From positions 13,968 through 77,967 of the forward strand of contig JAFXPG010000010.1 in the NCBI GenBank assembly GCA_017528045.1: a DNA stretch of 64,000 bases, written 5' to 3'. This stretch comes from Alphaproteobacteria bacterium (GTDB taxonomy: Bacteria; Pseudomonadota; Alphaproteobacteria; Rs-D84). The notes beneath the pieces are model-generated. The model ran no database searches and was not told the DNA's origin. It saw only the letters and a program-made list of their open reading frames with translations. Shown here one piece after another: positions 6,514 to 62,646 of this stretch; the stretch's first letter is position 1, and each line of letters opens with the position of its first letter. The position numbers and the translations under genes are program-made.

Positions 6514-7182
6514 ATGGAAAAACAAGAATTAAAAAATTTAAAAAATAATGAATTGCGAACATTTGGTCGCCGTCACGGGAAAAAATTATCAAACCGCAAA
6601 CAATGGTTAATGGATAACATCTTGCCTGATTTATCACCAGATTCCAAAGACTTTGGTAAAAATCCTGTAATTTTAGAAATTGGATTTGGTAATGGCGAAC
6701 ATTTACGTGATTTATCAATAAAAAATCAAAAATCTATTATTATTGGTGCAGAACCTTTCGCAAATGGTGTTGCAGCCTTACTTTCTGCAATAACGACCGA
6801 ATCGGACAATCAATTAATAGACCAATATAAAAATATTCGTATTTGGCCTGATGATGTTAGAATTTTATTAAAAAACATAGAAAACGCAAAATTTGATGAA
6901 ATTTGGGTTTTACATCCAGATCCATGGCCAAAAGCCAGACATGAAAAAAGACGTCTGCTAAACCATGATTTTTTAAATTTATTATCAAAACATTTATCCA
7001 ATAATGGTAAAATTATCATAGGTACAGATCATTGGGAATATTATGATTGGATTGTTGAACAATTAAAACAAACCGAATTAATTATAAAATCTACCAATTT
7101 GGATATTATCAAAACAAGATACCAATTAAAAAACAAGGCTGGAACCACAAAACCAAAATATTTAATATTAACAAATCATTAA
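6514..7182 (+). CDS. trmB: tRNA (guanine46-N7)-methyltransferase
   Basis: EIGFGNGEH SAM-binding motif and VLHPDPWPKARHEKRRL, the diagnostic TrmB block. Confidence 0.85.
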   Translation: MEKQELKNLKNNELRTFGRRHGKKLSNRKQWLMDNILPDLSPDSKDFGKNPVILEIGFGNGEHLRDLSIKNQKSIIIGAEPFANGVAALLSAITTESDNQLIDQYKNIRIWPDDVRILLKNIENAKFDEIWVLHPDPWPKARHEKRRLLNHDFLNLLSKHLSNNGKIIIGTDHWEYYDWIVEQLKQTELIIKSTNLDIIKTRYQLKNKAGTTKPKYLILTNH

Positions 7183-7862
7183 AAGAAAAATTTTGTTTTA
7201 TTTATTAAATCGGGTTTCATAATTTCTGTTAAACGGACTATCTGATCTACCCTGTCCAAATTATTCAACAATACAAAATGTAATTGACCATCAAAATCCC
7301 ATTGTTCTAACAAAGCATAAATACGCCCAATAAAATCAGAACGATTTCCCATATCTTCTGAAAAAGTTAAACCTAAAGAATCTGCTTTAACACCTTTTAA
7401 TTTGTTGAATATATTAGATAAATCATTTATATCTATGTCTTGTATATCCATACATAAAGATAATTTATGTTCGAAAAACAAATCATTTCTTACTATTGAT
7501 AAAACATCAATCAAATTGTAAAAATCATGCATTTTTATAAATAATTGGACCCCATTTGCACCATGTTTAAATATTCCAGCAATGTTTTTTATTAAATCAT
7601 CAGCATCAGTATCAAAATTTTTCTTCAACGGTGTAAAACTGAATCTGGTTAAAATTTCGACTGGTACCTTTTCAAGATATGTCCACATATTTTCGACCAT
7701 ATCTGGTGGTACAGATACAACAGGCACTTTAGATTGTGCGATTTTATCTGCCAACAAAGCAGATTCATTAGTATCTTCCACCATTTCACACCATAATGCT
7801 AATCTGGTATCTTCATTAAAAAAAATTTCATTTGCTTCAATCATTTGTTTCCAGTTTATCAT
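7179..7862 (-). CDS. hypothetical protein (faint DeoC/aldolase-like TIM-barrel pattern)
   Basis: 227-aa ORF with ATGA-type overlap with the trmB end. VPVVSVPP...TRFSF...HGANGVQLFIKM is loosely reminiscent of DeoC-family strands. No catalytic Lys recognised. Confidence 0.45.
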   Translation of the reverse strand: MINWKQMIEANEIFFNEDTRLALWCEMVEDTNESALLADKIAQSKVPVVSVPPDMVENMWTYLEKVPVEILTRFSFTPLKKNFDTDADDLIKNIAGIFKHGANGVQLFIKMHDFYNLIDVLSIVRNDLFFEHKLSLCMDIQDIDINDLSNIFNKLKGVKADSLGLTFSEDMGNRSDFIGRIYALLEQWDFDGQLHFVLLNNLDRVDQIVRLTEIMKPDLINKTKFFF

Positions 7863-24646: not shown

Positions 24647-24652
24647 CACATC

Positions 24653-24865
24653 GTCAGAAAGAGTTTTTCTGATGGGGTGTCAAGGCCCGTTCAGCATGCG
24701 TCTGTGTTACGGACGTTAAATATCTCCAACTAAAACATGGTTGGAGGGTTGCGATATACATAAATAAGCACACAATTTCATGTTGAATTGTCTTGAACCT
24801 CCAACCGCCTGAATTTTTCCGGCGGTTCTTTAGTTTTTGCTGCAGTGAAACAAAAAAGGGAAACC
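24653..24865 (+). promoter_or_regulatory. conserved structured 5' leader (candidate attenuator / riboswitch-like element), copy A
   Basis: G+C-richer non-coding stretch. Hairpins P1 24654-24672, X:Y 24724-24730/24740-24746 and P4 24772-24791, alternative strand X' 24798-24806, and a terminator. Colinear with copy B on the opposite strand. Confidence 0.6.
24803..24838 (+). terminator. leader (attenuator) intrinsic terminator, copy A
   Basis: AACCGCC-11 nt-GGCGGTT followed by TCTTTAGTTTTT, about 30 nt upstream of the start codon. Confidence 0.65.
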
Positions 24866-25624
24866 ATGAAAAGATTCATATTATTTATACCTGTATCATT
24901 TATGTGCACATTTGCATTTGCACATACAATAAATTGGCATGTTGATGGCAATACATATCAAACAACAACATGTAATATCGGTAATGATGTGATACTGCCA
25001 AACACACCAACAAAACGCGGATATACATTTAAAGGTTGGGAAGAAGAACATTTTTTAAGGGGTCAATTTGAAACATGGACAGATGTTCCAACAACAGACT
25101 TAAGGTATTTACGTGATATTTATAACAATCGTGTTCCAGCCCACTCAGATTACATTATCGTAGAAGATGCCAGTGATTACGTTCCTCTTACATTCAATGA
25201 TAGTTTTGAATTTTGGAATGTATCACATAATTATCAAACTATATGGGCACACAGATATAACGATACAACCGTACAAAAATCAGTGGTATATACATCTGGT
25301 AATGCGCTTAAACCAGAAGAGAATTGGTGGGATTATTTTGGTCCAAATAACGAAATATTAATAAAACGTATAAACGGAAATATAATTGTAATTGCTCAAA
25401 CAACGTTGCGCTTTAATGGGCAAGCATATACTTCAGGACAAACCATATTATCAACAAATCTAAACGATTCATCAAATGATCATAATACACATGTTGTTGA
25501 ATTTTTATCAGGTACATATCAAACAATAGAAGGCAGATGGAAATTTATTTATTCTGGTACATGGGACACAGATGGAAAAATTGGTTGGATACCAGATCAA
25601 CAAATTTCAAATACACTTGAATAA
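24866..25624 (+). CDS. secreted protein with N-terminal Listeria-Bacteroides (InlB B-repeat-like) repeat; cassette A gene 1
   Basis: Signal peptide MKRFILFIPVSFMCTFAFA. TINWHVDGNTYQTTTCNIGNDVILPNTPTKRGYTFKGW fits the P..P.K.GY.F.GW repeat pattern (Flg_new/PF09479-like). The remaining ~190 aa are unrecognised. Paralog of 55955..56695. Confidence 0.6.
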   Translation: MKRFILFIPVSFMCTFAFAHTINWHVDGNTYQTTTCNIGNDVILPNTPTKRGYTFKGWEEEHFLRGQFETWTDVPTTDLRYLRDIYNNRVPAHSDYIIVEDASDYVPLTFNDSFEFWNVSHNYQTIWAHRYNDTTVQKSVVYTSGNALKPEENWWDYFGPNNEILIKRINGNIIVIAQTTLRFNGQAYTSGQTILSTNLNDSSNDHNTHVVEFLSGTYQTIEGRWKFIYSGTWDTDGKIGWIPDQQISNTLE

Positions 25625-25628
25625 TGAC

Positions 25629-26363
25629 ATGAAAATATTTTTGATTTATGTTTTTATTTTATTACCAAGTTCTGTTGTTGCAGAACCCCTGTTTAACACA
25701 GACATTATTAATGGTTGTGGAAACAGTTCTTATTACAAAGCTATCTTAGAAACAAATACTTATAATTGTTCAAATGGTTATTATTTACCAGCTGGTGGAA
25801 TATCTTGCGAAACTTGTCCGATTAATCATACCTGCAATGGTGGATTTTTTGTATACAACCCCACTATAACTCAGGGTTTAGAAGATGGAAATATACTTGT
25901 TCAAAATGTTACAGGTGGCTGTTTAAATAATTTTGGTCAAAACTTTTCTGCTGTATTTATTTTAAATAGTTATAATTGTTCACCCGGTTATTACTTACCT
26001 GCGAACTTTGATGAATGTCGTCCATGTTTATTAAATCATTATTGCGTTGGTGGAACGTATAGTTTTAATGAAACAACCGATCAAGGTATAGAAGAATGTC
26101 CATCAATGCGACCATTTGCACCGGTTAATTCGGATATATGTTATGCACATATATTACATGTTGGTAACGATATAATATATTTGCGTTCTAATAAATTAAC
26201 CACACCATCTTTAAATGTTGCATATGGAAATGAAGTATTTTATACGAATATGACAACGACACCAACATACATGACGTCCGGTTCATCGCATTATTTCAAA
26301 ACGATTTATAATAACACAGAATATTATATTTGTGATGATACAACATATAATGTTGAAGATTAA
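25629..26363 (+). CDS. secreted Cys-rich protein with two furin-like/ephrin-receptor-like (GCC2_GCC3-like) repeats; cassette A gene 2
   Basis: Signal peptide MKIFLIYVFILLPSSVVA. Two repeats of YNCS.GYYLPA-x5-C-x2-C-x2-NH-x-C-x-GG...N.T..QG.E. 13 Cys in the mature part. Paralog of 55203..55958. Confidence 0.6.
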   Translation: MKIFLIYVFILLPSSVVAEPLFNTDIINGCGNSSYYKAILETNTYNCSNGYYLPAGGISCETCPINHTCNGGFFVYNPTITQGLEDGNILVQNVTGGCLNNFGQNFSAVFILNSYNCSPGYYLPANFDECRPCLLNHYCVGGTYSFNETTDQGIEECPSMRPFAPVNSDICYAHILHVGNDIIYLRSNKLTTPSLNVAYGNEVFYTNMTTTPTYMTSGSSHYFKTIYNNTEYYICDDTTYNVED

Positions 26364-49553: not shown

Positions 49554-49584
49554 AAAAACACCGGCAAATGCCGGTATTTTTTTA
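49552..49584. terminator. bidirectional terminator AAAAAAACACCGG-CAAATG-CCGGTATTTTTTT (recurrent motif, copy 2)
   Basis: Hairpin between convergent mnmE and the acyl-CoA ligase. Confidence 0.7.
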
Positions 49585-51162
49585 TTCTTTTCTGTCTGGA
49601 TATTGACCAGCAATTAAGTTCTTTCGAACAACATGGTGTTTAACCTTTTGTGTACTGGTCATTGGTAAATCTTCAGTTGTCATTGCAAAATGCGTTACCC
49701 ATTTATATGAAGCAACTTTTTTATTTTGTTCTGCAATTTCTTTTGACAATTTATCCAATGTCATATCTTTATCAACACTGAACACACCGTATGCAACTGT
49801 TTTATCACCTACTTTATGTTCGAATACCGCGACATTTTTTACACCTGGAATTTCAATGAATAAACCTTCCAGTTCATCTGGATATACGTTTTTACCAGAA
49901 TCTAAAACAATTACTTGTTTTTTACGTCCAGCAAAATGTAATTCTCCGTTTTTATCCATATACATCATATCGCCAGTATTAAACCAACCATCTTGATCAA
50001 ATACAGTTGCATTAACTTCATCATTATTCATATAACCATTGAAAACTTGATGCCCACGCAACCATAAAACACCTACACCATTTTCGTCTTTATCACGAAT
50101 TTCACATTCGTTATTAGATGTTGGAGCACCAACTGAATAAGCCAATCTTTTATTGGTTGGTTTTGAAATACAGATTGGTCCTACTGTTTCTGTTAAACCA
50201 TAACCTTGTATAAAAGATAAACCCAAAGATTCATAGAAATTTTCAACTTCTGGTTTAGTAGCTGCACCACCGGCAATTAATAATTTAGCACGTCCACCAA
50301 AAACACTTAAAATTGGTTCTTGCACTTTGCGAACAAAGAAATCTAAGCCCATATCTTTTAATGTTTTTTGATTTCTTAAAATAAATGATGCGACACGCCA
50401 TTTACCTTGTTCTTTCATTGTTGTAACAATTTTATTACGGAACAATTCCCAAACACGTGGAACAGCCGGTATAACATGTGGTTGGAATTTTTTGAAATCG
50501 TCCAAGATATATTTAGGATTAACCGTTGGTTGCAAAACCAATGATGCGCCATAATGAACAGTTGCCAAAATACCAATAGCAAAACCGAATATATGATACA
50601 AAGGTAAAAAACCATACATAACATCACCTGAATGAAAATATTCAGACATATCTTCCAAAGAATTTGCACATTCTGTTAAGTTAAAATGTGTTAAAGGAAC
50701 AACTTTTGGTGTTCCTGTGGAACCAGAGGTGAAAGATAAAGTTGCGATATCTGTTGATTCAGAAGCATAAGGTCTTAAATCATAATTTATATCGCCATCT
50801 TTGCTGGTAATATCATAAAATTTAAATTTTTTTGTTTTATAAAAGAACGATGGTTCTGCACAAACAAATTTACATCCAGCAATTTCACACATTTTATCGT
50901 ATTCCAAAGGTGTTAAATTTGTATCTAACATCAATACAGTTCCACCCAAATACCATACAGCAAATAAAGTCAATGGAAATTGTGGAATATTATGCGATAA
51001 AATTCCAACAATATCACCGTGTTTAATACCTTCTTTGTGTAAACTTGCAGCCCTTGCACGAACTTGTTCAATGAATTGAGAATAAGTTACGTTTTCACGA
51101 ACCAAAAATAAATTTTCTGGCCATTGATTAACTGCATTTTCTAATTTTTGATACATATTCAT
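49582..51162 (-). CDS. AMP-dependent synthetase/ligase (FadD-like acyl-CoA or acyl-ACP synthetase), paralog 1 of 3
   Basis: SFTSGSTGTPK (AMP motif I), QGYGLTET, TGD, GRKKQVIVLDSGKNVYP. Confidence 0.85.
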   Translation of the reverse strand: MNMYQKLENAVNQWPENLFLVRENVTYSQFIEQVRARAASLHKEGIKHGDIVGILSHNIPQFPLTLFAVWYLGGTVLMLDTNLTPLEYDKMCEIAGCKFVCAEPSFFYKTKKFKFYDITSKDGDINYDLRPYASESTDIATLSFTSGSTGTPKVVPLTHFNLTECANSLEDMSEYFHSGDVMYGFLPLYHIFGFAIGILATVHYGASLVLQPTVNPKYILDDFKKFQPHVIPAVPRVWELFRNKIVTTMKEQGKWRVASFILRNQKTLKDMGLDFFVRKVQEPILSVFGGRAKLLIAGGAATKPEVENFYESLGLSFIQGYGLTETVGPICISKPTNKRLAYSVGAPTSNNECEIRDKDENGVGVLWLRGHQVFNGYMNNDEVNATVFDQDGWFNTGDMMYMDKNGELHFAGRKKQVIVLDSGKNVYPDELEGLFIEIPGVKNVAVFEHKVGDKTVAYGVFSVDKDMTLDKLSKEIAEQNKKVASYKWVTHFAMTTEDLPMTSTQKVKHHVVRKNLIAGQYPDRKE

Positions 51163-51183
51163 TTTTGTTACCTACTTTCTTTA

Positions 51184-52764
51184 TTAGTCATGTCTTATCG
51201 TATATTTACCATCAATCAACCATTGACGAACGACATGGTGTTTTATTTTTTGTGTACTGGTCACAGGCAAATCATCTGTTGTTAAAGCAAAATGTGTCAC
51301 CCATTTATAAGAAGCAACTTTTTTATTTGTATTAGCAACTTGTGCTGCTAATTTATCAATACTCATTCCTTCTTCTACACTGAACACACCGTATGCAACA
51401 GTTTTACCACCTATTTCATGTTCGAATACAGCTACACTTTTTACACCTGGAATTTCAATGAATAAACCTTCCAGTTCATCTGGATATACGTTTTTACCAG
51501 AATCTAAAACAATTACTTGTTTTTTACGTCCAGCAAAATGTAATTCTCCGTTTTTATCAATTGATACCAAATCACCTGTACAGAAAAAACCATCTTTATC
51601 AAAAGATTCTTTGTTGGCTTCATCATTATTCAAATAGCCACCAAATATTTGGTTTCCACGAACCCATAACATACCTATTCCATTTTCATCTTTATTACGG
51701 ATTTGAATTTCAGTATCACCCATTGGTGCACCAAAAGCATAAGGAATACGTTTTTTCAAAGGTCTTGAACAACATATTGGACCAACGGTTTCTGTCATTC
51801 CATATCCTTGAACAAAAGCCATTCCCAGTTGTGTATAAAATTTTTCAACTTCTGGTTTAGTAGCTGCACCACCTGCAACTAATAATCTTGCACGTCCACC
51901 AAAAATAGAACGAATTTGATTAAGAACTTTATCAACTAATTTTCCCAATCCAACCAATCGCAATACTTTTTGATTATTCATGATGAAAGATACTAACCAC
52001 CACTTCTTTTTTGCTTTTACACCTTCAATAATTTTTTTACGGAATATTTCCCATAACTTTGGTACGGCAGGTATAACTTGTGGTTTATATTTTGCAAAAT
52101 CAGCCATAATCGCATTAGGATTAATCGTAGATTGCAATAATATTCCCATACCAAAATGCAATGGTGCCAAAAATCCAACAGCAAAACCAAACACATGGTA
52201 TAATGGTAAAAATGCATAAAACATTTCACCAGGTCTTAACCATTGATTTAAATATTCCAAATTATCAGAACAAGAAACTAAATTAAAATGAGTCAAAGGA
52301 ACCACTTTTGGTGTTCCCGTGGAACCAGATGTAAAAGACATAGTTGCAACATCTTCATCTTTCAAAGGATAAGCTTTTAAATTTTCGTCTGTATTTTCAT
52401 CTTTTGTTTCTATATCAAAAAACCTAAAAGTTTCAGTTTCATAAAAGAATGATTTTTCAGCACATACAAATTTACAATCTGTGGTTTTAGTCATATTTTC
52501 ATATTCAACAGATGTTAAATTTGTATCTAATAACAAAACAGTTCCACCCAAATACCAAATTGCAAATAAAGTAGATACAAATTCTGGTATATTGTGTGAT
52601 AACAAGCCAACTACATCTCCAGGTTTAACACCTAAATCACGTAAAGTAGTTGCACGTGCTTGAACCATTTTTGGAAAATCTTCAAAAGTTATATTTTCAC
52701 GAACAAGAAATACTGTTTTTGGATTTCTTGTAACGTTTTTTTCCAATAATTGATACATATTCAT
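51184..52764 (-). CDS. AMP-dependent synthetase/ligase, paralog 2 of 3
   Basis: Same motifs as paralog 1. TAATG stop/start overlap with paralog 3. Confidence 0.85.
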   Translation of the reverse strand: MNMYQLLEKNVTRNPKTVFLVRENITFEDFPKMVQARATTLRDLGVKPGDVVGLLSHNIPEFVSTLFAIWYLGGTVLLLDTNLTSVEYENMTKTTDCKFVCAEKSFFYETETFRFFDIETKDENTDENLKAYPLKDEDVATMSFTSGSTGTPKVVPLTHFNLVSCSDNLEYLNQWLRPGEMFYAFLPLYHVFGFAVGFLAPLHFGMGILLQSTINPNAIMADFAKYKPQVIPAVPKLWEIFRKKIIEGVKAKKKWWLVSFIMNNQKVLRLVGLGKLVDKVLNQIRSIFGGRARLLVAGGAATKPEVEKFYTQLGMAFVQGYGMTETVGPICCSRPLKKRIPYAFGAPMGDTEIQIRNKDENGIGMLWVRGNQIFGGYLNNDEANKESFDKDGFFCTGDLVSIDKNGELHFAGRKKQVIVLDSGKNVYPDELEGLFIEIPGVKSVAVFEHEIGGKTVAYGVFSVEEGMSIDKLAAQVANTNKKVASYKWVTHFALTTDDLPVTSTQKIKHHVVRQWLIDGKYTIRHD

Positions 52765-54362
52765 TATAAACGCTCCCGTAATTTATCAGTGTTATCTGGA
52801 TATTTACCATCAATCAAATTTTGACGTACTTCATGATGTTTTACTTTTTGAGTACTGGTCATCGGTAAGTTATCTGTTGTCATTGCAAAATGTGTTACCC
52901 ATTTATATGGTGCAACCTTACGATTAGCCAGCGCAACTTGTGCTGCTAATTTAATTAAACTTACACCTTTTTCAACTTGGAACACAGCATATGTCACAGT
53001 TTTATTTTTTACTTTATGTTCAAACACAGCAACGTTTTTAACACCATCTATTTCCATAAATAATGCTTCTAATTCATCTGGATAAACATTTTTACCAGAA
53101 TCTAAAACAATTACTTGTTTTTTACGACCTGCGAAATGATATTGATTATATTTATCTAAATAAACCAAATCACCGGTATTAAACCAACCATCTTTATCAA
53201 AAGATTCTGCATTTGCATTTTTATTATTTAAATAACCATTAAATACATTTGGTCCACGTACCCATAATGTTCCAATACCTTTTTCATTTGCATCGCGTAT
53301 TGTACATTCAGAACAACCTATGGGTGTTCCAAAAGCAAACGGCACACGATGTTTAGCAGGACGAGAGCAACAGAATGGACCAACAGTTTCAGTCATTCCA
53401 TATCCTTGAACAAAAGTTATACCCAAAGATTCATAGAATTTTTCAACTTCTGGTTTAGTAGCTGCACCACCTGCAATCATCAAATTTACACGACCACCAA
53501 AAATATCACGCAAAGGTTTTTGAACTTTAGCAACTAATTTTTTCAAACCAATTGCGCGTAAAAATTTTTGATGACGTAAAACGAACGATACAAACCACCA
53601 CATACGTTTTGCTTTAACACCTTCGATAATTTTATTACGAAAAACTTCGTATAATCTTGGTACCGCAGGAATACAATGAGGTTTATAAACTTTAAAATCT
53701 TCCAAAATGTATTTTGGATTAACACTTGGTTGTAATAAAATTCCCATATGGAAATACATTGGTGCCAAAATACCACCGGCAAACCCAAATATATGATACA
53801 AAGGTAAAAATCCATACATTATTTCATTTTTATGTAACCATTTACCCATATCTGCATAATAATCAGAAGAAGTCTTTAAATTACCATGAGTCAAAGGAAC
53901 AACTTTTGGTGATCCAGTAGATCCAGAAGTAAAAGACATTGTTGCAACAGCATCTTCTTTCAATTTTACAGATTTTAATTTTGCATCAGCTTTTTCATCT
54001 TTTGTTTCTATATCAAAAAATTTAAAACCTTTTGCTTTATAGAAAAAAGATTTTTCTGCACATACAAATTTACATTTAACCGTTTTAGTCATATTATCAT
54101 ATTCAAATGGCGTCAAATTTGTATCCAGCAATAAAACTGTGCCACCCAGATACCATATAGCGAAAAGAGTCAACGGAAATTCTGGAATATTATGTGCCAA
54201 CAACCCAACAACATCACCTGCTTTTACCCCTGCTTTATGTAATGTGGTTGCACGTGCATGAACCATTTTCAGAAAGTTTTTAAATGTGATCTTTTCACGT
54301 ACCAAATACAAAGCATTAGGCGATTCTTTCGCCACCTGCTCTAAAACGTGATACATATTCAT
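52764..54362 (-). CDS. AMP-dependent synthetase/ligase, paralog 3 of 3
   Basis: SFTSGSTGSPK, QGYGMTET, TGD, GRKKQVIVLDSGKNVYP. Confidence 0.85.
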   Translation of the reverse strand: MNMYHVLEQVAKESPNALYLVREKITFKNFLKMVHARATTLHKAGVKAGDVVGLLAHNIPEFPLTLFAIWYLGGTVLLLDTNLTPFEYDNMTKTVKCKFVCAEKSFFYKAKGFKFFDIETKDEKADAKLKSVKLKEDAVATMSFTSGSTGSPKVVPLTHGNLKTSSDYYADMGKWLHKNEIMYGFLPLYHIFGFAGGILAPMYFHMGILLQPSVNPKYILEDFKVYKPHCIPAVPRLYEVFRNKIIEGVKAKRMWWFVSFVLRHQKFLRAIGLKKLVAKVQKPLRDIFGGRVNLMIAGGAATKPEVEKFYESLGITFVQGYGMTETVGPFCCSRPAKHRVPFAFGTPIGCSECTIRDANEKGIGTLWVRGPNVFNGYLNNKNANAESFDKDGWFNTGDLVYLDKYNQYHFAGRKKQVIVLDSGKNVYPDELEALFMEIDGVKNVAVFEHKVKNKTVTYAVFQVEKGVSLIKLAAQVALANRKVAPYKWVTHFAMTTDNLPMTSTQKVKHHEVRQNLIDGKYPDNTDKLRERL

Positions 54363-54432
54363 AATTTAAAATCCTTGTTGTTTTTATATTGGACATTGTG
54401 TATTATAGACTTATAAAAAAAAGATTGCAATT

Positions 54433-55206
54433 ATGAAAATATTGACATTAAACATAAACTCTATACGTGCCCATATTGAAAGTTTTATGGATATTTTACG
54501 TTCTGGTGAATACGACACAATATTAGTTCAAGAATTAAAAGTAGAAAATGCTAATTTTCCATATAATTTATTAGATGAATATGGTTACAACATCAAAATT
54601 TTTGGTCAAAAATCTTGGAATGGTGTTGCAATATTTTCTAAACATTCAATTGAAGACGTTACAATGGGTATGCCAACATATCCAGATATAAATTCCAGAT
54701 TTCTTGAATGTGTAATTGATGGTCATGTTCGTGTAATTAATGTATATATGCCAAATGGTGACAATATAGAATCACCAAAATTCCCATATAAATTAGAATG
54801 GATGCGTGCTTTTACCGAATACATCAAACAATACATTGATTCCGAAGAACCGGTCATAATTGGTGGCGATTACAACGTATCTATTGAAGACAGGGATATT
54901 TGGAACCCTAAAAATTATATAGGGTCTTCTATTTCAGCACCGGCAGCACGCGAAATAATGCAACAATGGCTGGATTCTGGTTGGATTGATGCATGGCGTA
55001 CATTACATCCGGATGAAAACGATTATACTTGGTATGGGTATCGTGGCCGAGACACAGTTGGCAACAACCAAGGTTTAAGACTAGATTATTTTTTATGTAA
55101 TAAACGCGCAGCTAAAATAATTAAAAATTGCGAAATAGACAAAGAACCACGTCTGGCCGAAAAACCAACCGACCATTGTGGTTTAATGATTGAATTGAAA
55201 GATTAA
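54433..55206 (+). CDS. xth: exodeoxyribonuclease III
   Basis: EEP-fold motifs: LNINSIRA, VQELK, NGVAI, GGDYNV, and C-terminal TDHCGLMIEL. Confidence 0.9.
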   Translation: MKILTLNINSIRAHIESFMDILRSGEYDTILVQELKVENANFPYNLLDEYGYNIKIFGQKSWNGVAIFSKHSIEDVTMGMPTYPDINSRFLECVIDGHVRVINVYMPNGDNIESPKFPYKLEWMRAFTEYIKQYIDSEEPVIIGGDYNVSIEDRDIWNPKNYIGSSISAPAAREIMQQWLDSGWIDAWRTLHPDENDYTWYGYRGRDTVGNNQGLRLDYFLCNKRAAKIIKNCEIDKEPRLAEKPTDHCGLMIELKD

Positions 55207-55958
55207 TCATTTCTACATTCTGGAACACTATCATCACATATTAAATATTCGACATCACCAATCATTACATGTAACCCTTTTGACATACCTTCGGACATTT
55301 TTGGAAAAGTATATGAATTCATGTCTCTGGGGACTGCATTTGCCGAATATATACCGTTATGGTGTCCAATAAATAATCTATGGACTGTTGGATGTGCTGG
55401 TGATTGGTGCATGTATAAAATATCTTCACCAACATGTAATTTTCGACCACATTGACTTGACAGCCACATGCCAGCCGGAGCAAATGGATGGTTGCCCGGA
55501 CATTCTATGATTCCTTGTGGTGTTGTTTCATTAAATGTTAAATTACCACCAGGACAATAGTGGTCATTTAAACATTTTGTACATTCAACACTATTTGCCG
55601 GCAAATAATAACCAGGACTACAATTACGTTCCGCAATCTTAAAGTTTGCATATAACATCCTTGGGAAATTTTCAGAACAAACATTGTTGGCTGATTTTGT
55701 TATCTTTTGTGTATAATCTATTCCCGAAGATTTAGTTTCGTTAAATAATAATTCACCACCAGAACAAGTATAACCATTTGGGCAATTTGAACAAACAACA
55801 GAATTCGCGGGTAAAAATTGATTAATATCACAAACTATAGATTTATTAGAAAATTTTGCCACAAGCTGCAAACCATAAAAACATTCTATTTTATCATCCG
55901 CAAAAACAGACGAAAATAAAAATAAAAACACTGTAAAAAACATAATTTTTATTATCAT
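55203..55958 (-). CDS. secreted Cys-rich protein with furin-like/ephrin-receptor-like repeats; cassette B gene 2
   Basis: Signal peptide MIIKIMFFTVFLFLFSSVFA. Repeat NCSPGYYLPANSVECTKCLNDHYCPGGNLTFNETTPQGIIECP plus a degenerate first repeat. 14 Cys. Paralog of 25629..26363. Confidence 0.6.
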   Translation of the reverse strand: MIIKIMFFTVFLFLFSSVFADDKIECFYGLQLVAKFSNKSIVCDINQFLPANSVVCSNCPNGYTCSGGELLFNETKSSGIDYTQKITKSANNVCSENFPRMLYANFKIAERNCSPGYYLPANSVECTKCLNDHYCPGGNLTFNETTPQGIIECPGNHPFAPAGMWLSSQCGRKLHVGEDILYMHQSPAHPTVHRLFIGHHNGIYSANAVPRDMNSYTFPKMSEGMSKGLHVMIGDVEYLICDDSVPECRND

Positions 55959-56695
55959 TGGTTTCCACCTAAATATTTTTCAGCAACCCATCCATTCTTT
56001 CCTGAGGCATCCCAATTATCAGACTGATATGAGAATCTCCAAGTACCTTCATAACCACTCTGTCCTGTAAAGTTGATTTCTTTATATAATGTTTCTTGAG
56101 ATGGTCTCGCGTAATGCCACTGTAATGCGATTTCATTGATTGGTTTTACTACACCATCTACAATTACTGGTACATCTAAAGGTGTCAATTTCCAAACTTC
56201 ACTAGCATAAGTAATTCTCAATTGATTACCATTAGTACCAATTATAAAACCTTTTGCACCTCTTTGAAAAACTTCATTGTGATTTAATGTTATATCAGTT
56301 GCACCAAATACAAATCTCGCAAATGCAGTACCACCACTCATTGGTTCGTTATAAATTTGTATAGGCATACCAGGTTTTACATAACCACTTGGATCTTCAA
56401 CTACCATATAATCTATATATGTTGGTTTAGTACTACCTGTATAATCTGGATAATAACTTCTATAATCTGTTGGTACTGTATCCCATGTACTAAATTTACC
56501 ACGATAAAAACTTGCGATCCAACCATCAAAATCATAACCGTGTTTTGATGGTTGGATTACTGGCAAATCTAAATCTTGGCCTATTTCACAAGTTGTTTGG
56601 TCATATAATTCGCCATCTTTATACCAATCCAGATTTATCGTATCTGCATTTGCGCCGAAACACAGCATTGATAATATTATTAAAATCTTTTTCAC
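55955..56695 (-). CDS. secreted protein with InlB B-repeat-like N-terminus; cassette B gene 1
   Basis: GTG 56695 follows AGGGAGAAAA. Signal peptide (V)KKILIILSMLCFGANA. TINLDWYKDGELYDQTTCEIGQDLDLPVIQPSKHGYDFDGW. C-terminal GTWRFSYQSDNWDASGKNGW parallels GRWKFIYSGTWDTDGKIGW of copy A. Confidence 0.6.
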   Translation of the reverse strand: MKKILIILSMLCFGANADTINLDWYKDGELYDQTTCEIGQDLDLPVIQPSKHGYDFDGWIASFYRGKFSTWDTVPTDYRSYYPDYTGSTKPTYIDYMVVEDPSGYVKPGMPIQIYNEPMSGGTAFARFVFGATDITLNHNEVFQRGAKGFIIGTNGNQLRITYASEVWKLTPLDVPVIVDGVVKPINEIALQWHYARPSQETLYKEINFTGQSGYEGTWRFSYQSDNWDASGKNGWVAEKYLGGNQ

Positions 56696-56895
56696 GATTT
56701 TCTCCCTGTTTGCTTTCAACAAAACACCGCCAGAAAATCGGGCGGTTGGAGGTTAGTTACAATTTAAACGGAAATTGTGCGCTTATTCAATATATTCACG
56801 ACCCTCCAACCATAACAGAGTTGGAGATTTTTTCGTCTTTACTTTGACGCCGTTTAATCGGGTAACTACACCCCATCAGCAAAACTCTTGCTGAC
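56696..56895 (-). promoter_or_regulatory. conserved structured 5' leader (candidate attenuator / riboswitch-like element), copy B
   Basis: P1 56876-56894, X 56820-56826, Y 56802-56811, P4 56759-56778 and X' 56744-56752. Colinear with copy A. Confidence 0.6.
56718..56747 (-). terminator. leader (attenuator) intrinsic terminator, copy B
   Basis: On the minus strand: AACCGCC-CGATTTTCT-GGCGGTG followed by TTTTGTT, about 20 nt before the start codon. Confidence 0.6.
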
Positions 56896-56901
56896 AAATT
56901 T

Positions 56902-56930
56902 ATTATAAAATATACACCGTAAAATGTAAA
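56902..56930 (-). promoter_or_regulatory. sigma70-like promoter of leader/cassette B (TTTACA-17 nt-TATAAT)
   Basis: Near-consensus hexamers on the minus strand. The -10 lies 6 nt upstream of the conserved GTCAG. Confidence 0.65.
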
Positions 56931-56937
56931 CAGAAAA

Positions 56938-59421
56938 TTAATCGTTAACCCGTGCAAGATCGTCGTATTCGTGATATTTTGCACCAACACTTTCACGATA
57001 TTCATACGCAGCAGGTTCTAATCCACTGTATTGTCCAAATAATTCTTTTACCTTTTGAACAGTGTTATCAATCATTTCTTGAGCAGTTTCTCCAGAATAT
57101 TCTATTAAATCTAAATCACCATTTTTTAATTGTAAAAATTGCATTATTGGGACAATTGAAACATCTTTCATTTTTATTGGAAAACCACCTGATTGCAATA
57201 TGTATGCTTCCAATGGTAATTGTGGCATCGTACCATCAGTTAATTGCTTTTTACTTGGCGCTTTCCCTGTTTTAATATCCATAACAGTATCATTCCAAAC
57301 AATATCAGCACGTGCCCGAACATTACGTCCATTTATTTTTATTCCACCAGATATTTCTTTTTTGCCAATTGGTCTAGATTTAAAATGTTTATTTACAAAC
57401 GGTGCAATTTCACAAAATCTTTTATGCCAAAAATAAAATAAAACAGAATTTTTTTCCAACACTTGTTTTGCACGTGTATCCATTTCTTGAATCAATTCAT
57501 CAACATCAAAATTTGTTGAATTTTCTATAACATCATGAACTAAAATTCCAAAATTGCGTGAATCAGGTAAAACCCAATAATCATCAACCGGTTTTAATTT
57601 CAAAATATGTTTAGCATAAAAAGCATATGGATTATGAATCAACAATTCTAATTCCGTCACATAAACATCAGATCTATCTATTGGTGGAATTGGCGGCGAA
57701 TAATCAAGTGGTTCATACGGCACATCATCTGTTTTACGCACAGATTCCAAAATATCTTTTGATTCTTGGATATCGCCAATTGCCACACGAACACGGGATA
57801 AAAATCTGGATTCATTTATTAACACACCCCCAGATTGTTTAGAACGCAACCAATATACTTCACGACAACAAGACAGATTTATAAAATCTAAAGCCATCAA
57901 AGATACTTTTCTGTTTGGCGAAGGTAAACCTATTTCCATTGCTATTTTTCGTGGTAACCATGAATTTTCATAACCAGTTGTTGGAAACATACCTTCGTTT
58001 AAACCAGTTAAAATAACAACATCTGCTGTTTGCATACGAGATTCAATTGTTCCCAAAACACAAACTTTACAATCATCTTCTAATACAGGTCTGACAGAAA
58101 CAGAATCTATCGCATCTTTTACAAAAGCACGTGCATCAAAAACATTTAATATAATACCATTTTTATTTAAATATTCAGACATACTTTTTATCACATTCCA
58201 AATTGGAATATCTTGTTCATTTTCTATTGTAAAACTGGGTTGAAAAAGACATGGATTATTATCAACTAAATCAACCAACATATTAAATATATTATAATTA
58301 TATTCTTGATACTTTTGTTCAAATTCTGTTTGATTATTATCACACCAATATTCAAACAAATTTAAAATTGCGCGTCCTAAATTTGTCATTTTTCCAGACA
58401 AACCCGCTGAAAAATCCGCATTAATATTATTATGCATCATTTCTGATTTTATTCTTTGGTTAGCCGCCGCATCTGGGGTAATAATCAATACCGTTTTATT
58501 TTGTTTTATTGCGCGTTTTGTAATCTCAACAGCGGCACAAGCTTCTTCGCTTTCACGCACACATTCTATTAAATGACAATTATCTAATCCAGACAATACA
58601 TGTTTACCAGTATTTTCAAAAGCAATATTCAATATATCAACATATCTAGATGTTCCAACATCAATAGTTTGAACATCTGTTGGTTTTAAACCCAATCTTT
58701 TTAAAAATTTATATTCAGCATTATATGGATTAGTATCTAATTCAAAATCATCTTCACGACCAGATATTTTACCAGACAAAATTATCTTTCCATTATCACG
58801 TTGCGCAATTTCATACATTAAATCAGCCGTTGCTGGGACAGATGCAGTAGAACCACAAACAATAACTTGTTTATACTCATCTAATTTTTTTATCCATGAA
58901 CGAATATCGTTATTTCGTTTTGACACAGATGTCAATTTATCGTTTGGTAATTGTTTTAAAATATCCAGTATGCGTGCTTTATTTTGAAAATGTTTTGCAT
59001 ATTTTTCATCTATCAAAGATGACCATTGTACATCAGAAATCTTGATTCCTTCATTTTCTAAATAATCTTGCATACGAATAAAATCATGTGCTATTGGTAA
59101 TGCAGTTGAAATATTTTTTATATTAGCATCTGCTGATAATAATTTAGATAAAATTATCACACGTTCTTGGTTTGAAAAAATATCATCATCATTATCTTCA
59201 TCACTATCTTCAACACCTGTACCCAAAGGGATCAATTCTGGCAATATAACCGCATGACCTATTTTTTTTATAATCATACGTTCAACACTTCTTATTGCAC
59301 GACGTGATGGTAAAAAAATCAAAACATCAGAAAAATCTTGCTTATATTTTTCCAATATATACCACAATGCATCTAAAGTATGTGCAGGATCAGAAACATT
59401 AAAAACATTATTATTTAACAC
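56938..59421 (-). CDS. addB: double-strand break repair protein AddB (alphaproteobacterial type, PD-(D/E)XK nuclease C-terminus)
   Basis: Degenerate helicase-like N-terminal domains. C-terminal nuclease motif ...RADIVWNDTVMDIKTGK...QLPLEAYIL. 827 aa. Confidence 0.7.
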   Translation of the reverse strand: MLNNNVFNVSDPAHTLDALWYILEKYKQDFSDVLIFLPSRRAIRSVERMIIKKIGHAVILPELIPLGTGVEDSDEDNDDDIFSNQERVIILSKLLSADANIKNISTALPIAHDFIRMQDYLENEGIKISDVQWSSLIDEKYAKHFQNKARILDILKQLPNDKLTSVSKRNNDIRSWIKKLDEYKQVIVCGSTASVPATADLMYEIAQRDNGKIILSGKISGREDDFELDTNPYNAEYKFLKRLGLKPTDVQTIDVGTSRYVDILNIAFENTGKHVLSGLDNCHLIECVRESEEACAAVEITKRAIKQNKTVLIITPDAAANQRIKSEMMHNNINADFSAGLSGKMTNLGRAILNLFEYWCDNNQTEFEQKYQEYNYNIFNMLVDLVDNNPCLFQPSFTIENEQDIPIWNVIKSMSEYLNKNGIILNVFDARAFVKDAIDSVSVRPVLEDDCKVCVLGTIESRMQTADVVILTGLNEGMFPTTGYENSWLPRKIAMEIGLPSPNRKVSLMALDFINLSCCREVYWLRSKQSGGVLINESRFLSRVRVAIGDIQESKDILESVRKTDDVPYEPLDYSPPIPPIDRSDVYVTELELLIHNPYAFYAKHILKLKPVDDYWVLPDSRNFGILVHDVIENSTNFDVDELIQEMDTRAKQVLEKNSVLFYFWHKRFCEIAPFVNKHFKSRPIGKKEISGGIKINGRNVRARADIVWNDTVMDIKTGKAPSKKQLTDGTMPQLPLEAYILQSGGFPIKMKDVSIVPIMQFLQLKNGDLDLIEYSGETAQEMIDNTVQKVKELFGQYSGLEPAAYEYRESVGAKYHEYDDLARVND

Positions 59422-62463: not shown

Positions 62464-62538
62464 GCGAGCATAGTTCAAAGGCTAGAATGCAAGCCTTCCA
62501 AGCTTGAAATGAGGGTTCGATTCCCTCTGCTCGCACCA
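62464..62538 (+). tRNA. tRNA-Gly (anticodon UCC), CCA encoded
   Basis: Hand-folded cloverleaf: acceptor GCGAGCA/TGCTCGC, anticodon stem CAAGC/GCTTG with loop CTTCCAA, T arm GAGGG-TTCGATT-CCCTC. 75 nt. Confidence 0.9.
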
Positions 62539-62559: not shown

Positions 62560-62646
62560 GGGCGTGCGCCGGAGTTGGAGAGCCGGGGCAGACTGTAAAT
62601 CTGTTGTCTTACGACTGAGGTGGTTCGAATCCACCCACTCCCACCA
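62560..62646 (+). tRNA. tRNA-Tyr (anticodon GUA), long variable arm, CCA encoded
   Basis: Acceptor GGGCGTG/CACTCCC (one C-U mismatch at 4:69), D stem CCGG/CCGG, anticodon loop CTGTAAA, 14-nt variable arm, T arm GGTGG-TTCGAAT-CCACC. 87 nt. Confidence 0.85.

Follow-up and report, generated by a model that had tools for sequence, protein, structure and literature searches.

A family of structured leader RNAs with two competing predicted folds ahead of operons for candidate secreted proteins in Rs-D84 Alphaproteobacteria

What stands in front of two cassettes for predicted secreted proteins that lie on opposite strands of one bacterial contig, and what might it do there? We asked this question for a stretch of 64,000 nucleotides (nt), hereafter the window, from an Alphaproteobacteria bacterium of the lineage Rs-D84 (GenBank assembly GCA_017528045.1, contig JAFXPG010000010.1, positions 13,968 to 77,967 of the forward strand). 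A sequence-only reading of the window had described cassette B as repeating the architecture of cassette A (promoter, leader, gene 1 and gene 2) on the opposite strand about 29 kb away, and our analysis bears this out. That reading had also noted the leader, which is indeed present; what it missed is that the leader is the best conserved and most informative part of the cassettes. We consider it quite probable that the leader is a new attenuator or orphan riboswitch-like element, in which two mutually exclusive folds would control the termination of transcription before an operon for secreted proteins.

Cassette B is a self-contained expression unit: its own promoter is followed by a structured leader (about 190 nt) and by an operon of two translationally coupled genes for predicted secreted proteins. 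The sigma-70-type promoter (TTTACA-17-TATAAT, 56902..56930, minus strand) matches at 11 of 12 positions and is the top match within 54300-57100. The end of its -10 box is followed, after 6 nt, by the first hairpin (P0) of the leader RNA, which we call leader B (56712..56900, minus strand) and assign to the sequence class named type I. Gene 1 (55955..56695, minus strand, 246 amino acids (aa)) begins with a GTG at 56695 after GGGAGA; the full open reading frame (ORF) spans 55955..56722 on the minus strand, and the GTG is the likely start, in agreement with the calls in public assemblies. No promoter-like site was found between 56712 and 56695. Gene 2 follows at 55203..55958 (minus strand, 251 aa). 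In cassette A, on the plus strand, the leader RNA (leader A) takes up 24648..24840 and the genes 24845..26363, with gene 1 at 24845/24863..25624 and gene 2 most likely at 25629..26363. The overlap of the two genes in an ATGA, which the sequence-only reading had given as a part of the layout, is found in cassette B, where the stop of gene 1 and the start of gene 2 share 55955-55958. It is absent from cassette A if gene 2 starts at its signal-peptide ATG at 25629, since the TAA of gene 1 (25622-25624) lies ahead of that start.

The two leaders are 79% identical (mean over alignment columns), compared with 52% for the coding DNA. Both fold far better than shuffled controls (z = -5.19 for leader A and -4.19 for leader B), and the differences between them are compensatory in the helices P0, P1 and P2. 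A pattern of three conserved leader blocks occurs exactly twice in the window, with 0 occurrences expected, and a covariance model (R1) finds the two leaders only, with 167.9 bits for leader B and 162.3 bits for leader A, the next match having 16 bits. In a search of one genome each for 185,579 species, the exact three-block pattern was found in at least 117 stretches; among the matches listed, all but one chance match belong to metagenome-assembled genomes (MAGs) of Candidatus Enterousia, uncultured Alphaproteobacteria or Rickettsiales. The samples behind the leader-bearing MAGs are of the gut type, among them rumen, horse, deer and chicken. R1 adds 13 more divergent copies within the fetched loci. 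One MAG has at least 7 copies of the leader, and two copies are present in 11 of about 100 8-kb loci among the matches listed. Note that the exact-pattern search biases the collection toward invariance of the three blocks, and that the expectation values (E) of the covariance models built here are rough.

We compared the window with 4227 Rfam models at their gathering thresholds and obtained two tRNAs only, the leaders being unmatched; with leaders A and B alone and E up to 10, the Rfam search returned noise only, the best match being sroD with 18 bits. A literature search gave no report of RNA elements in Enterousia or Rs-D84, and no relevant matches to the conserved 9-mers. On these comparisons the leader is a previously undescribed candidate RNA family, confined to Rs-D84 and Candidatus Enterousia as far as sampled. 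Genomes of the order Rs-D84 measure 0.75-1.0 Mb and are devoid of the tricarboxylic acid cycle, respiration and most biosynthesis; Rs-D84 and Enterousia occur in abundance in the guts of ruminants, horses, chickens and termites, and they probably depend on a partner, because their reduced genomes lack biosynthetic and respiratory pathways (PMC12306168).

The first of the two predicted folds can be followed along leader B (all positions on the minus strand). The 5' hairpin P0 (56875-56895) is followed by P1, a long closing helix (5' strand 56862-56874, 3' strand 56748-56760), and by the long-range helix P2, formed by the strands X (56850-56857) and X' (56764-56771). Inside them lie three hairpins: P3 (56834-56849), P4 (CUCCAAC / GGUUGGAG, with P4a at 56820-56826 and P4b at 56803-56811) and P5 (56780-56801). 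The conserved tail (56744-56752) leads into a predicted intrinsic terminator (56718..56745; CCGCCCG..CUGGCGG, then UGUUUUGUU), whose 5' arm overlaps the tail sequence CCUCCAACC. In leader A, on the plus strand, the corresponding elements are P0 at 24653-24673, P4a at 24724-24730, P4b at 24739-24747, the tail at 24798-24806 and the terminator at 24805-24831.

In an alignment of 117 sequences, 95.8% of the cells belonging to proposed pairs hold standard pairs, compared with 31-49% when the partners are slid by 1-3 columns. Double changes are seen in 810 cells, against at most 149 with slid partners, and the covariation score is 0.467, against at most 0.08; none of 500 shuffles reached the observed values. 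The variable part of P1 shows 53-66 compensatory sequences per pair, with broken pairs almost absent (10 at the fifth, less variable pair). P2 had to be evaluated separately by its best contiguous helix, because MAFFT cannot align it: the mean is 7.85 base pairs (bp) within a copy, compared with 4.54 bp (standard deviation 0.10) for permuted partners, and 86 distinct sequences are represented. The terminator hairpin with its U-run is present in all aligned copies, its third pair being AU in 55 and GC in 54. An extended -10 box, TGnTAnAAT, stands at a fixed distance ahead of P0 across 118 copies, and a same-strand ORF of at least 70 aa follows the leader in 104 of these 118, at a median of 49.5 nt past the tail.

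The second predicted fold involves the same segments. The tail CCUCCAACC repeats the sequence of P4a and is a perfect complement of P4b, GGUUGGAGG, so that P4b could pair with the tail over 9 bp; the last bases of the tail, CC/AACC, are shared with the 5' arm of the terminator. Folding with the pairing of P4b and the tail enforced gives a three-way junction that contains P5 and, as a local hairpin, P6 (ACAAU / AUUGU; in leader B 56772-56778 paired with 56759-56765, minus strand). P6 crosses P2, and one of its pairs is A:U in 59 copies and U:A in 57, without a mismatch. The predicted energies of the two states lie close together, at -61.0 and -58.0 kcal/mol for leader B, and at -69.5 and -57.3 kcal/mol for leader A. 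Furthermore, P4a, P4b and the tail change in concert: CUCCUGA / UCAGGAGG / CCUCCUGAC is seen in the loci L070 and L028, UUCCUGGC / GCCAGGAAGG / CCUCCUGGCC in L092 and CCCUGACC / GGUUGGGGAG / CUCCCCGACC in L033, and a further related set in L058. Both predicted pairings are thus supported by covariation. A covarying structure, a terminator before the ORF and an overlapping, mutually exclusive antiterminator are among the features expected of an attenuator or riboswitch, and the leader, as predicted, has each of these three.

Type I variants with other codes for P4a, P4b and the tail (CCUGAC, CCUGGCC, CCAAUC) lie at L028:7606-7834, L070:986-1206, L092:3010-3225 and L044:1039-1238, and L028 carries a standard and a variant type I copy within 8 kb. 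Some leaders are followed by additional hairpins. In the MAG Horse_feces297 (L028, L029, L035, L095 and L107) a conserved extra hairpin, GGTGGCGTATTTCCACGCATTTATACGCCACC, is found between the leader terminator and the gene, and in L010 and L078 there is a different post-terminator hairpin, CCCCTTCAG..CTGAAGGGG.

Small ORFs within the leader were considered and rejected. The conserved AUG in GAUGGGGUG opens ORFs of 25 codons in leader A and 15 in leader B; their sequences differ, they have no Shine-Dalgarno sequence and the AUG lies within a helix. A small ORF after the GGAGG of P4b is conserved in neither frame nor length.

Starting from three weak model matches, we derived a pattern that finds 47 metagenome stretches (L121-L167), whose leaders we call type II. 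Leaders of this class are also present at L033:2247-2466, L053:4171-4399 and L058:797-1008, where they share the locus with type I. The order of the elements is the same as in type I, and the sequences are different. P0 is GAAUCCAA-GAGA-UUGGGUUC, followed by GGGGCUGU; P4a (CCCUGAC), P4b (GGUCGGGGAG) and the tail (CUCCCCGACC) covary as a triple; the tail region reads ACUCCCCGACC and continues into the terminator. P6, here AAUCAU / AUGAUU, again encloses the 3' strand of P2. As a second set of sequences with the same predicted architecture, the type II class is independent support for P2, for P6 and for the triple of P4a, P4b and tail. The genes that follow type II leaders are of the same kinds as those after type I.

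Is there a known RNA that resembles any part of this structure? The junctions of type II match the Rfam family sRNA-Xcc1 (RF02221) with 38.8-39.4 bits (E 1.4e-5 in a 301-nt search), which is below the gathering score of 53 bits, genuine members reaching 69-72 bits; the leaders of the window remain unmatched by RF02221 at E up to 10. The topology, on the other hand, agrees. State B of leaders A and B consists of a 9-bp closing helix around two hairpins, and in the model alignment P4b:tail, P5 and P6 coincide with the elements of the consensus structure of sRNA-Xcc1. The likeness includes the closing helix of the junction (GG..GG(G)AGG / CCUCC..CC) and, of the two hairpins, a first whose internal loops are A/U-rich (GAAUAAAAUA ... 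GGAAUAA) and a second that is short. In genuine sRNA-Xcc1 the closing helix is GGCCGGGAGG / CCUCCCGGCC, which is near to the type I GGUUGGAGG / CCUCCAACC. A second covariance model (R2) is weak, as RNAalifold recovered only the closing helix from a mixed MAFFT alignment of types I and II; this model has its best match on the sRNA-Xcc1 element in two of three loci (16.9 bits, E 0.003, and 10.5 bits, E 0.17) and no such match in the third.

sRNA-Xcc1 was first described as an integron-encoded small RNA of Xanthomonas and was published as trans-acting, and its published contexts lie upstream of genes, namely symE in Xanthomonas integrons and the gene of an ORF6N protein in the APSE phage. In two of three genuine members examined (L169 and L170) the 3' strand of the closing helix shares bases with a hairpin further downstream, just ahead of the gene. 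The leaders described here differ from sRNA-Xcc1 in that they add a 5' domain of about 90 nt (P0, P1a, X, P3 and P4a), which would compete with the junction, and have a clear U-tract terminator, a chromosomal housekeeping context and tens of copies. We do not file the leaders as members of RF02221; their junction is probably a distant relative of sRNA-Xcc1, and what is new with respect to that family is the 5' competitor domain, the presence of an explicit terminator and the expansion to large numbers of chromosomal copies. In L169:780-885 and L170:780-882 (Aeromonas and Nitratidesulfovibrio) we also see a terminator-like hairpin, GCCCGTCAGNCGTRG, followed by T7 and ATGCCC, about 50 nt upstream of sRNA-Xcc1. 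The same upstream hairpin in such distant hosts suggests a larger mobile unit.

A switch between the two folds might work as follows. In State A ("off") the leader would form P1, P2, P3, P4 (P4a with P4b) and P5, and the free tail would form the terminator, so that transcription stops before gene 1. In State B ("on") P4b, GGUUGGAGG, would pair with the tail, CCUCCAACC, instead of with P4a, CUCCAAC, and close the three-way junction with P5 and P6; this would use up the 5' arm of the terminator, and RNA polymerase would enter gene 1 and gene 2. The balance of the folds would then set the read-through, and some signal, be it a small ligand, a protein or an RNA, would shift this balance. The sensing domain, acting as the "on" element, is most likely the three-way junction, because most of the conserved unpaired bases are found there and because the junction stands alone elsewhere as sRNA-Xcc1.

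Several points weigh against this interpretation. All the sequences come from MAGs or metagenomes, and the switch is a prediction from them. The invariance of GAUGGGGUG, GGUUGGAGG and CCUCCAACC is in part an artefact of the search pattern, and the covariation of the antiterminator helix comes from about eight divergent type I copies and the type II class. P6 could be a pseudoknot with P2 instead of a part of the alternative state. Furthermore, P4 is a stable local hairpin, which leaves the route to State B during transcription unexplained. Finally, the downstream genes, which code for secreted proteins, lipoproteins, HTH regulators and a probable methyltransferase, vary widely in function and are for the most part uncharacterised, so they give no clue to a ligand, and this diversity fits poorly with a metabolite-specific riboswitch.

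The last point is easier to reconcile with a protein-dependent attenuator of the PyrR or BglG/SacY type, in which an RNA-binding protein on a hairpin or on the junction would set the balance of terminator and antiterminator: diverse regulated genes suit a global regulator better than a metabolite. We regard such an attenuator as possible, if on the improbable side. In pyr leaders an anti-antiterminator, an antiterminator and a terminator hairpin follow the same three-hairpin logic, and the conserved P0 loop (GNGUU) and P3 stem (CGUC/GACG) could be protein sites. However, no candidate for such a protein emerged, few regulators are encoded in these genomes of about 0.9 Mb, and the leader, with its six helices and conserved junctions, is larger and more intricate than typical protein-binding attenuators. 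More generally, the leader shares with classical attenuators and riboswitch platforms (pyr/PyrR, trp, SAM-I) a promoter-proximal structured RNA, a terminator just before the ORF, an anti-antiterminator, and an antiterminator that shares bases with the 5' arm of the terminator; it differs from them in that it matches no known aptamer class and in that its regulon comprises uncharacterised secreted proteins and not a metabolic pathway. One leader element before many surface or secreted operons is also known, by way of analogy, from the riboswitch regulons of cyclic di-GMP (c-di-GMP), from RfaH/ops and from LoaP leaders, which have no sequence or structural similarity to the leaders here.

A second alternative is a network resembling the immunity systems of phages P4 (CI) and P1 (c4). 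Here the junction would be processed to a small RNA, whose P4b would pair in trans with P4a and the tail of leaders of the same class. Such a network is compatible with a switch in cis, to which it would add a genome-wide layer of termination control in trans. In the P4 CI and P1/P7 c4 leaders, seqB, the counterpart of P4b, has its complement both upstream, in seqA (which corresponds to P4a), and downstream, in seqC (which corresponds to the tail), and this pairing decides on the premature termination of the operon. The immunity of P4 reportedly follows this seqA/seqB/seqC logic (Sabbattini et al. 1995), which the leaders share. P4a, P4b and the tail are near-invariant over at least 100 copies from many species, next to helices that covary freely, and they change jointly into discrete classes which coexist in one genome or even one 8-kb locus (two type I variants in L028, type I with type II in L033, L053 and L058). 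The resemblance of the type II junctions to sRNA-Xcc1, published as trans-acting and sited upstream of genes, points in the same direction. We still regard the network as unlikely. A part of the block invariance stems from the search method, and a sequence-specific contact with a protein or ligand explains the invariance equally well; the processing is hypothetical; and the leaders match no Rfam C4 family, show no sequence or model match to the phage leaders and lie among housekeeping genes, outside prophages.

Taking this idea further, one may picture an RNA-only code for the accessory surface proteome, in which the classes CCAACC, CCUGAC, CCUGGCC and CCCCGACC would be orthogonal channels and the junction RNAs would act in trans. 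We find this quite doubtful. If true, it would allow the coordinated or mutually exclusive expression of surface cassettes without protein regulators in a bacterium of about 0.9 Mb, and the leader would be a chromosomal, expanded descendant of an element of the sRNA-Xcc1 or phage-immunity type.

What are the functional properties of the proteins that would be controlled? A signal-like hydrophobic N-terminus is seen in 92 of the 104 ORFs linked to a leader, compared with 15 of 41 other window ORFs, according to a crude hydrophobicity test; several of the 12 exceptions are ORFs picked in the wrong frame. The proteins are a mosaic of recurring modules, such as N-termini of the Flg_new type, Cys-rich repeats, fibre-like "AYVDTKQDK" repeats and the C-termini "YCWCKM...", "LHVGxD...YxxDD" and "LVRDFIPA...". 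Single-linkage clustering merged 96 of the downstream proteins into one cluster via these shared modules, which is a sign of mosaicism only. Pfam recognises almost none of the leader-linked proteins. Some leaders of both classes precede small regulators of the XRE/HTH_3 type (L001:7067-7417, L101:4092-4250 and L165:623-958), the protein in L001 matching HTH_3 with E 2.3e-13.

Both proteins of cassette B have a K-rich N-terminus, a hydrophobic core and a site of the A-x-A type, as expected of a signal peptide. In gene 1 this is followed by an N-terminal segment resembling Flg_new (Listeria-Bacteroides repeat) and by a rare C-terminal domain. The match to Flg_new (PF09479) has 19 bits and is below the cut-off of 27, while the homologous gene 1 of cassette A reaches 35.5 bits; a k-mer based search gave 4 homologues only of the cassette B protein. 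Gene 2 encodes, after its putative signal peptide, two Cys-rich repeats resembling the ephrin-receptor type and a C-terminal beta domain. The repeats, CxxGYYLPAxxxxCxxCxxxxYCxGG, weakly match Ephrin_rec_like and DUF7631: for Ephrin_rec_like (PF07699, cut-off 23.1 bits) gene 2 of cassette B has 11 bits and gene 2 of cassette A 14.7 bits, both below the cut-off, and one other leader-linked protein (L114) reaches 35.6 bits. No Pfam family matched the C-terminal domains of the cassette proteins. For gene 2 of cassette B, 131 homologues can be detected; they are hypothetical proteins throughout, the named ones coming from MAGs of Alphaproteobacteria. A confident AlphaFold2 model of the cassette B protein (mean predicted local distance difference test score, pLDDT, of 82) shows the two Cys-rich repeats and the beta domain; a Foldseek search of the PDB with the model gave nothing below E 0.3, the top match being the EphA4 ectodomain.

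The inverted arrangement of the two cassettes had suggested another explanation to the sequence-only reading: an old intragenomic duplication, with the inverted leaders as recombination substrates and with a TTAA, in which the stop codon of the cassette overlaps that of a convergent repair gene, as the hallmark of the cassettes. The cassettes are indeed inverted and paralogous, and both adjoin a repair gene in this way. The proteins are homologous: with those of cassette B compared to those of cassette A, BLASTP gives the gene 1 products 30% identity (E 6e-27) and the gene 2 products 36% (E 4e-44), and the shared motif blocks that had been listed are visible in the alignments. The divergence is old, as had been proposed: the coding DNA of A and B has about 1.1 synonymous changes per site (dS), near saturation, and a third-position identity of 0.43-0.46, compared with 0.36 for random sequences. 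Both copies are intact: a family alignment of 59 sequences has 20 invariant columns, of which 12 are Cys, and gene 2 of A and of B keeps every one of them. The proposed comparison of nonsynonymous (dN) with synonymous changes gave dN 0.68, dS 1.12 and a nominal ratio of about 0.6, which we discarded as uninformative, with synonymous sites so close to saturation. What does not hold is that A and B are a private pair of duplicates, because the gene 2 protein of cassette B has nearer relatives in other assemblies (64-68% identity) than in cassette A (36%, gene 2); the homologue in L016 is 53% identical to it. By sequence comparison, the genes of A and B are different old subfamilies of a large mosaic family of predicted secreted proteins.

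The TTAA overlaps are both real and 4 nt long: at 26360-26363 the stop of gene 2 of cassette A overlaps that of mutL, and at 55203-55206 the stop of gene 2 of cassette B overlaps that of xth. However, they are not specific to the cassettes. A third such overlap, at 7179-7182, joins two ORFs unrelated to them (6514..7182, plus strand, and 7179..7862, minus strand), and a hand count from the ORF list gives TTAA-type overlaps in 3 of about 12 convergent pairs of the window. Since an unrelated pair and this share of the convergent pairs show it too, the TTAA overlap is a trait of a compact, A+T-rich genome and not of the cassettes.

It is unlikely that the leaders mediate an inversion of the 26-55 kb segment. 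Identical runs shared by leaders A and B reach at most 14 nt, and the listed contigs of other samples show no inversion: in the long contigs L118 and L119 a PDDEXK_1 nuclease, cassette B and xth follow each other in the same order as in the window, and the short contig L120 holds only the xth side of cassette B. The positions of the cassettes are not conserved between species. In L082 (1-4300), from another species, the slot between yajC and mutL holds another leader and gene in the opposite orientation, and in L029 (3900-7300) a leader is found after mutL on the same strand; such slots look like exchange hot spots. In summary, the explanation by duplication and inversion is largely refuted already, and we consider it very improbable. 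It is hardly credible that the leader is a non-functional dispersed repeat (of the repetitive extragenic palindromic or miniature inverted-repeat transposable element kind) which folds by accident, for although it is multi-copy and intergenic, its promoter, its orientation and its distance to the downstream ORF are fixed, its many changes are compensatory and not a decay, one architecture spans two sequence classes, and terminal inverted repeats or target duplications are missing.

In the surroundings of cassette B, the convergent neighbour outside the cassette is xth (54433..55206, plus strand; Exo_endo_phos family, Pfam PF03372). The sole terminator-like site 3' of cassette B on the minus strand is at 54318-54337, past the far end of xth; for this reason transcripts of cassette B would traverse all of xth in antisense, unless otherwise stopped. 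At 49582-54362 on the minus strand lie three AMP-binding paralogues in tandem (acyl/aryl-CoA ligase-like; 526, 526 and 532 aa). In L118, from one other sample, the counterpart of the one at 52764-54362 is split and gives two products, of 347 and 193 aa. The two tRNA genes adjoin each other on the plus strand, at 62464-62535 and 62560-62643, the latter with a long variable arm and a score of 38.5 bits only.

Seen as an attenuator or orphan riboswitch-like element with two folds, the leader would represent a new and large family among the structured RNAs that regulate in cis, and more than 160 copies of it are listed here in two sequence classes. Comparative data rarely reveal both alternative folds of an orphan element, as they do in this case. 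The comparison with sRNA-Xcc1 suggests that this RNA, filed in Rfam as a trans-acting small RNA, may correspond to one domain, the antiterminator, of leaders that form a wider class. For annotation, the covariance model is useful as a marker of the starts of accessory operons in MAGs of Rs-D84 and Enterousia. For the biology of these bacteria, the leader family would, through its predicted control, offer a handle on when Rs-D84 and Enterousia display their candidate host-interaction proteins.

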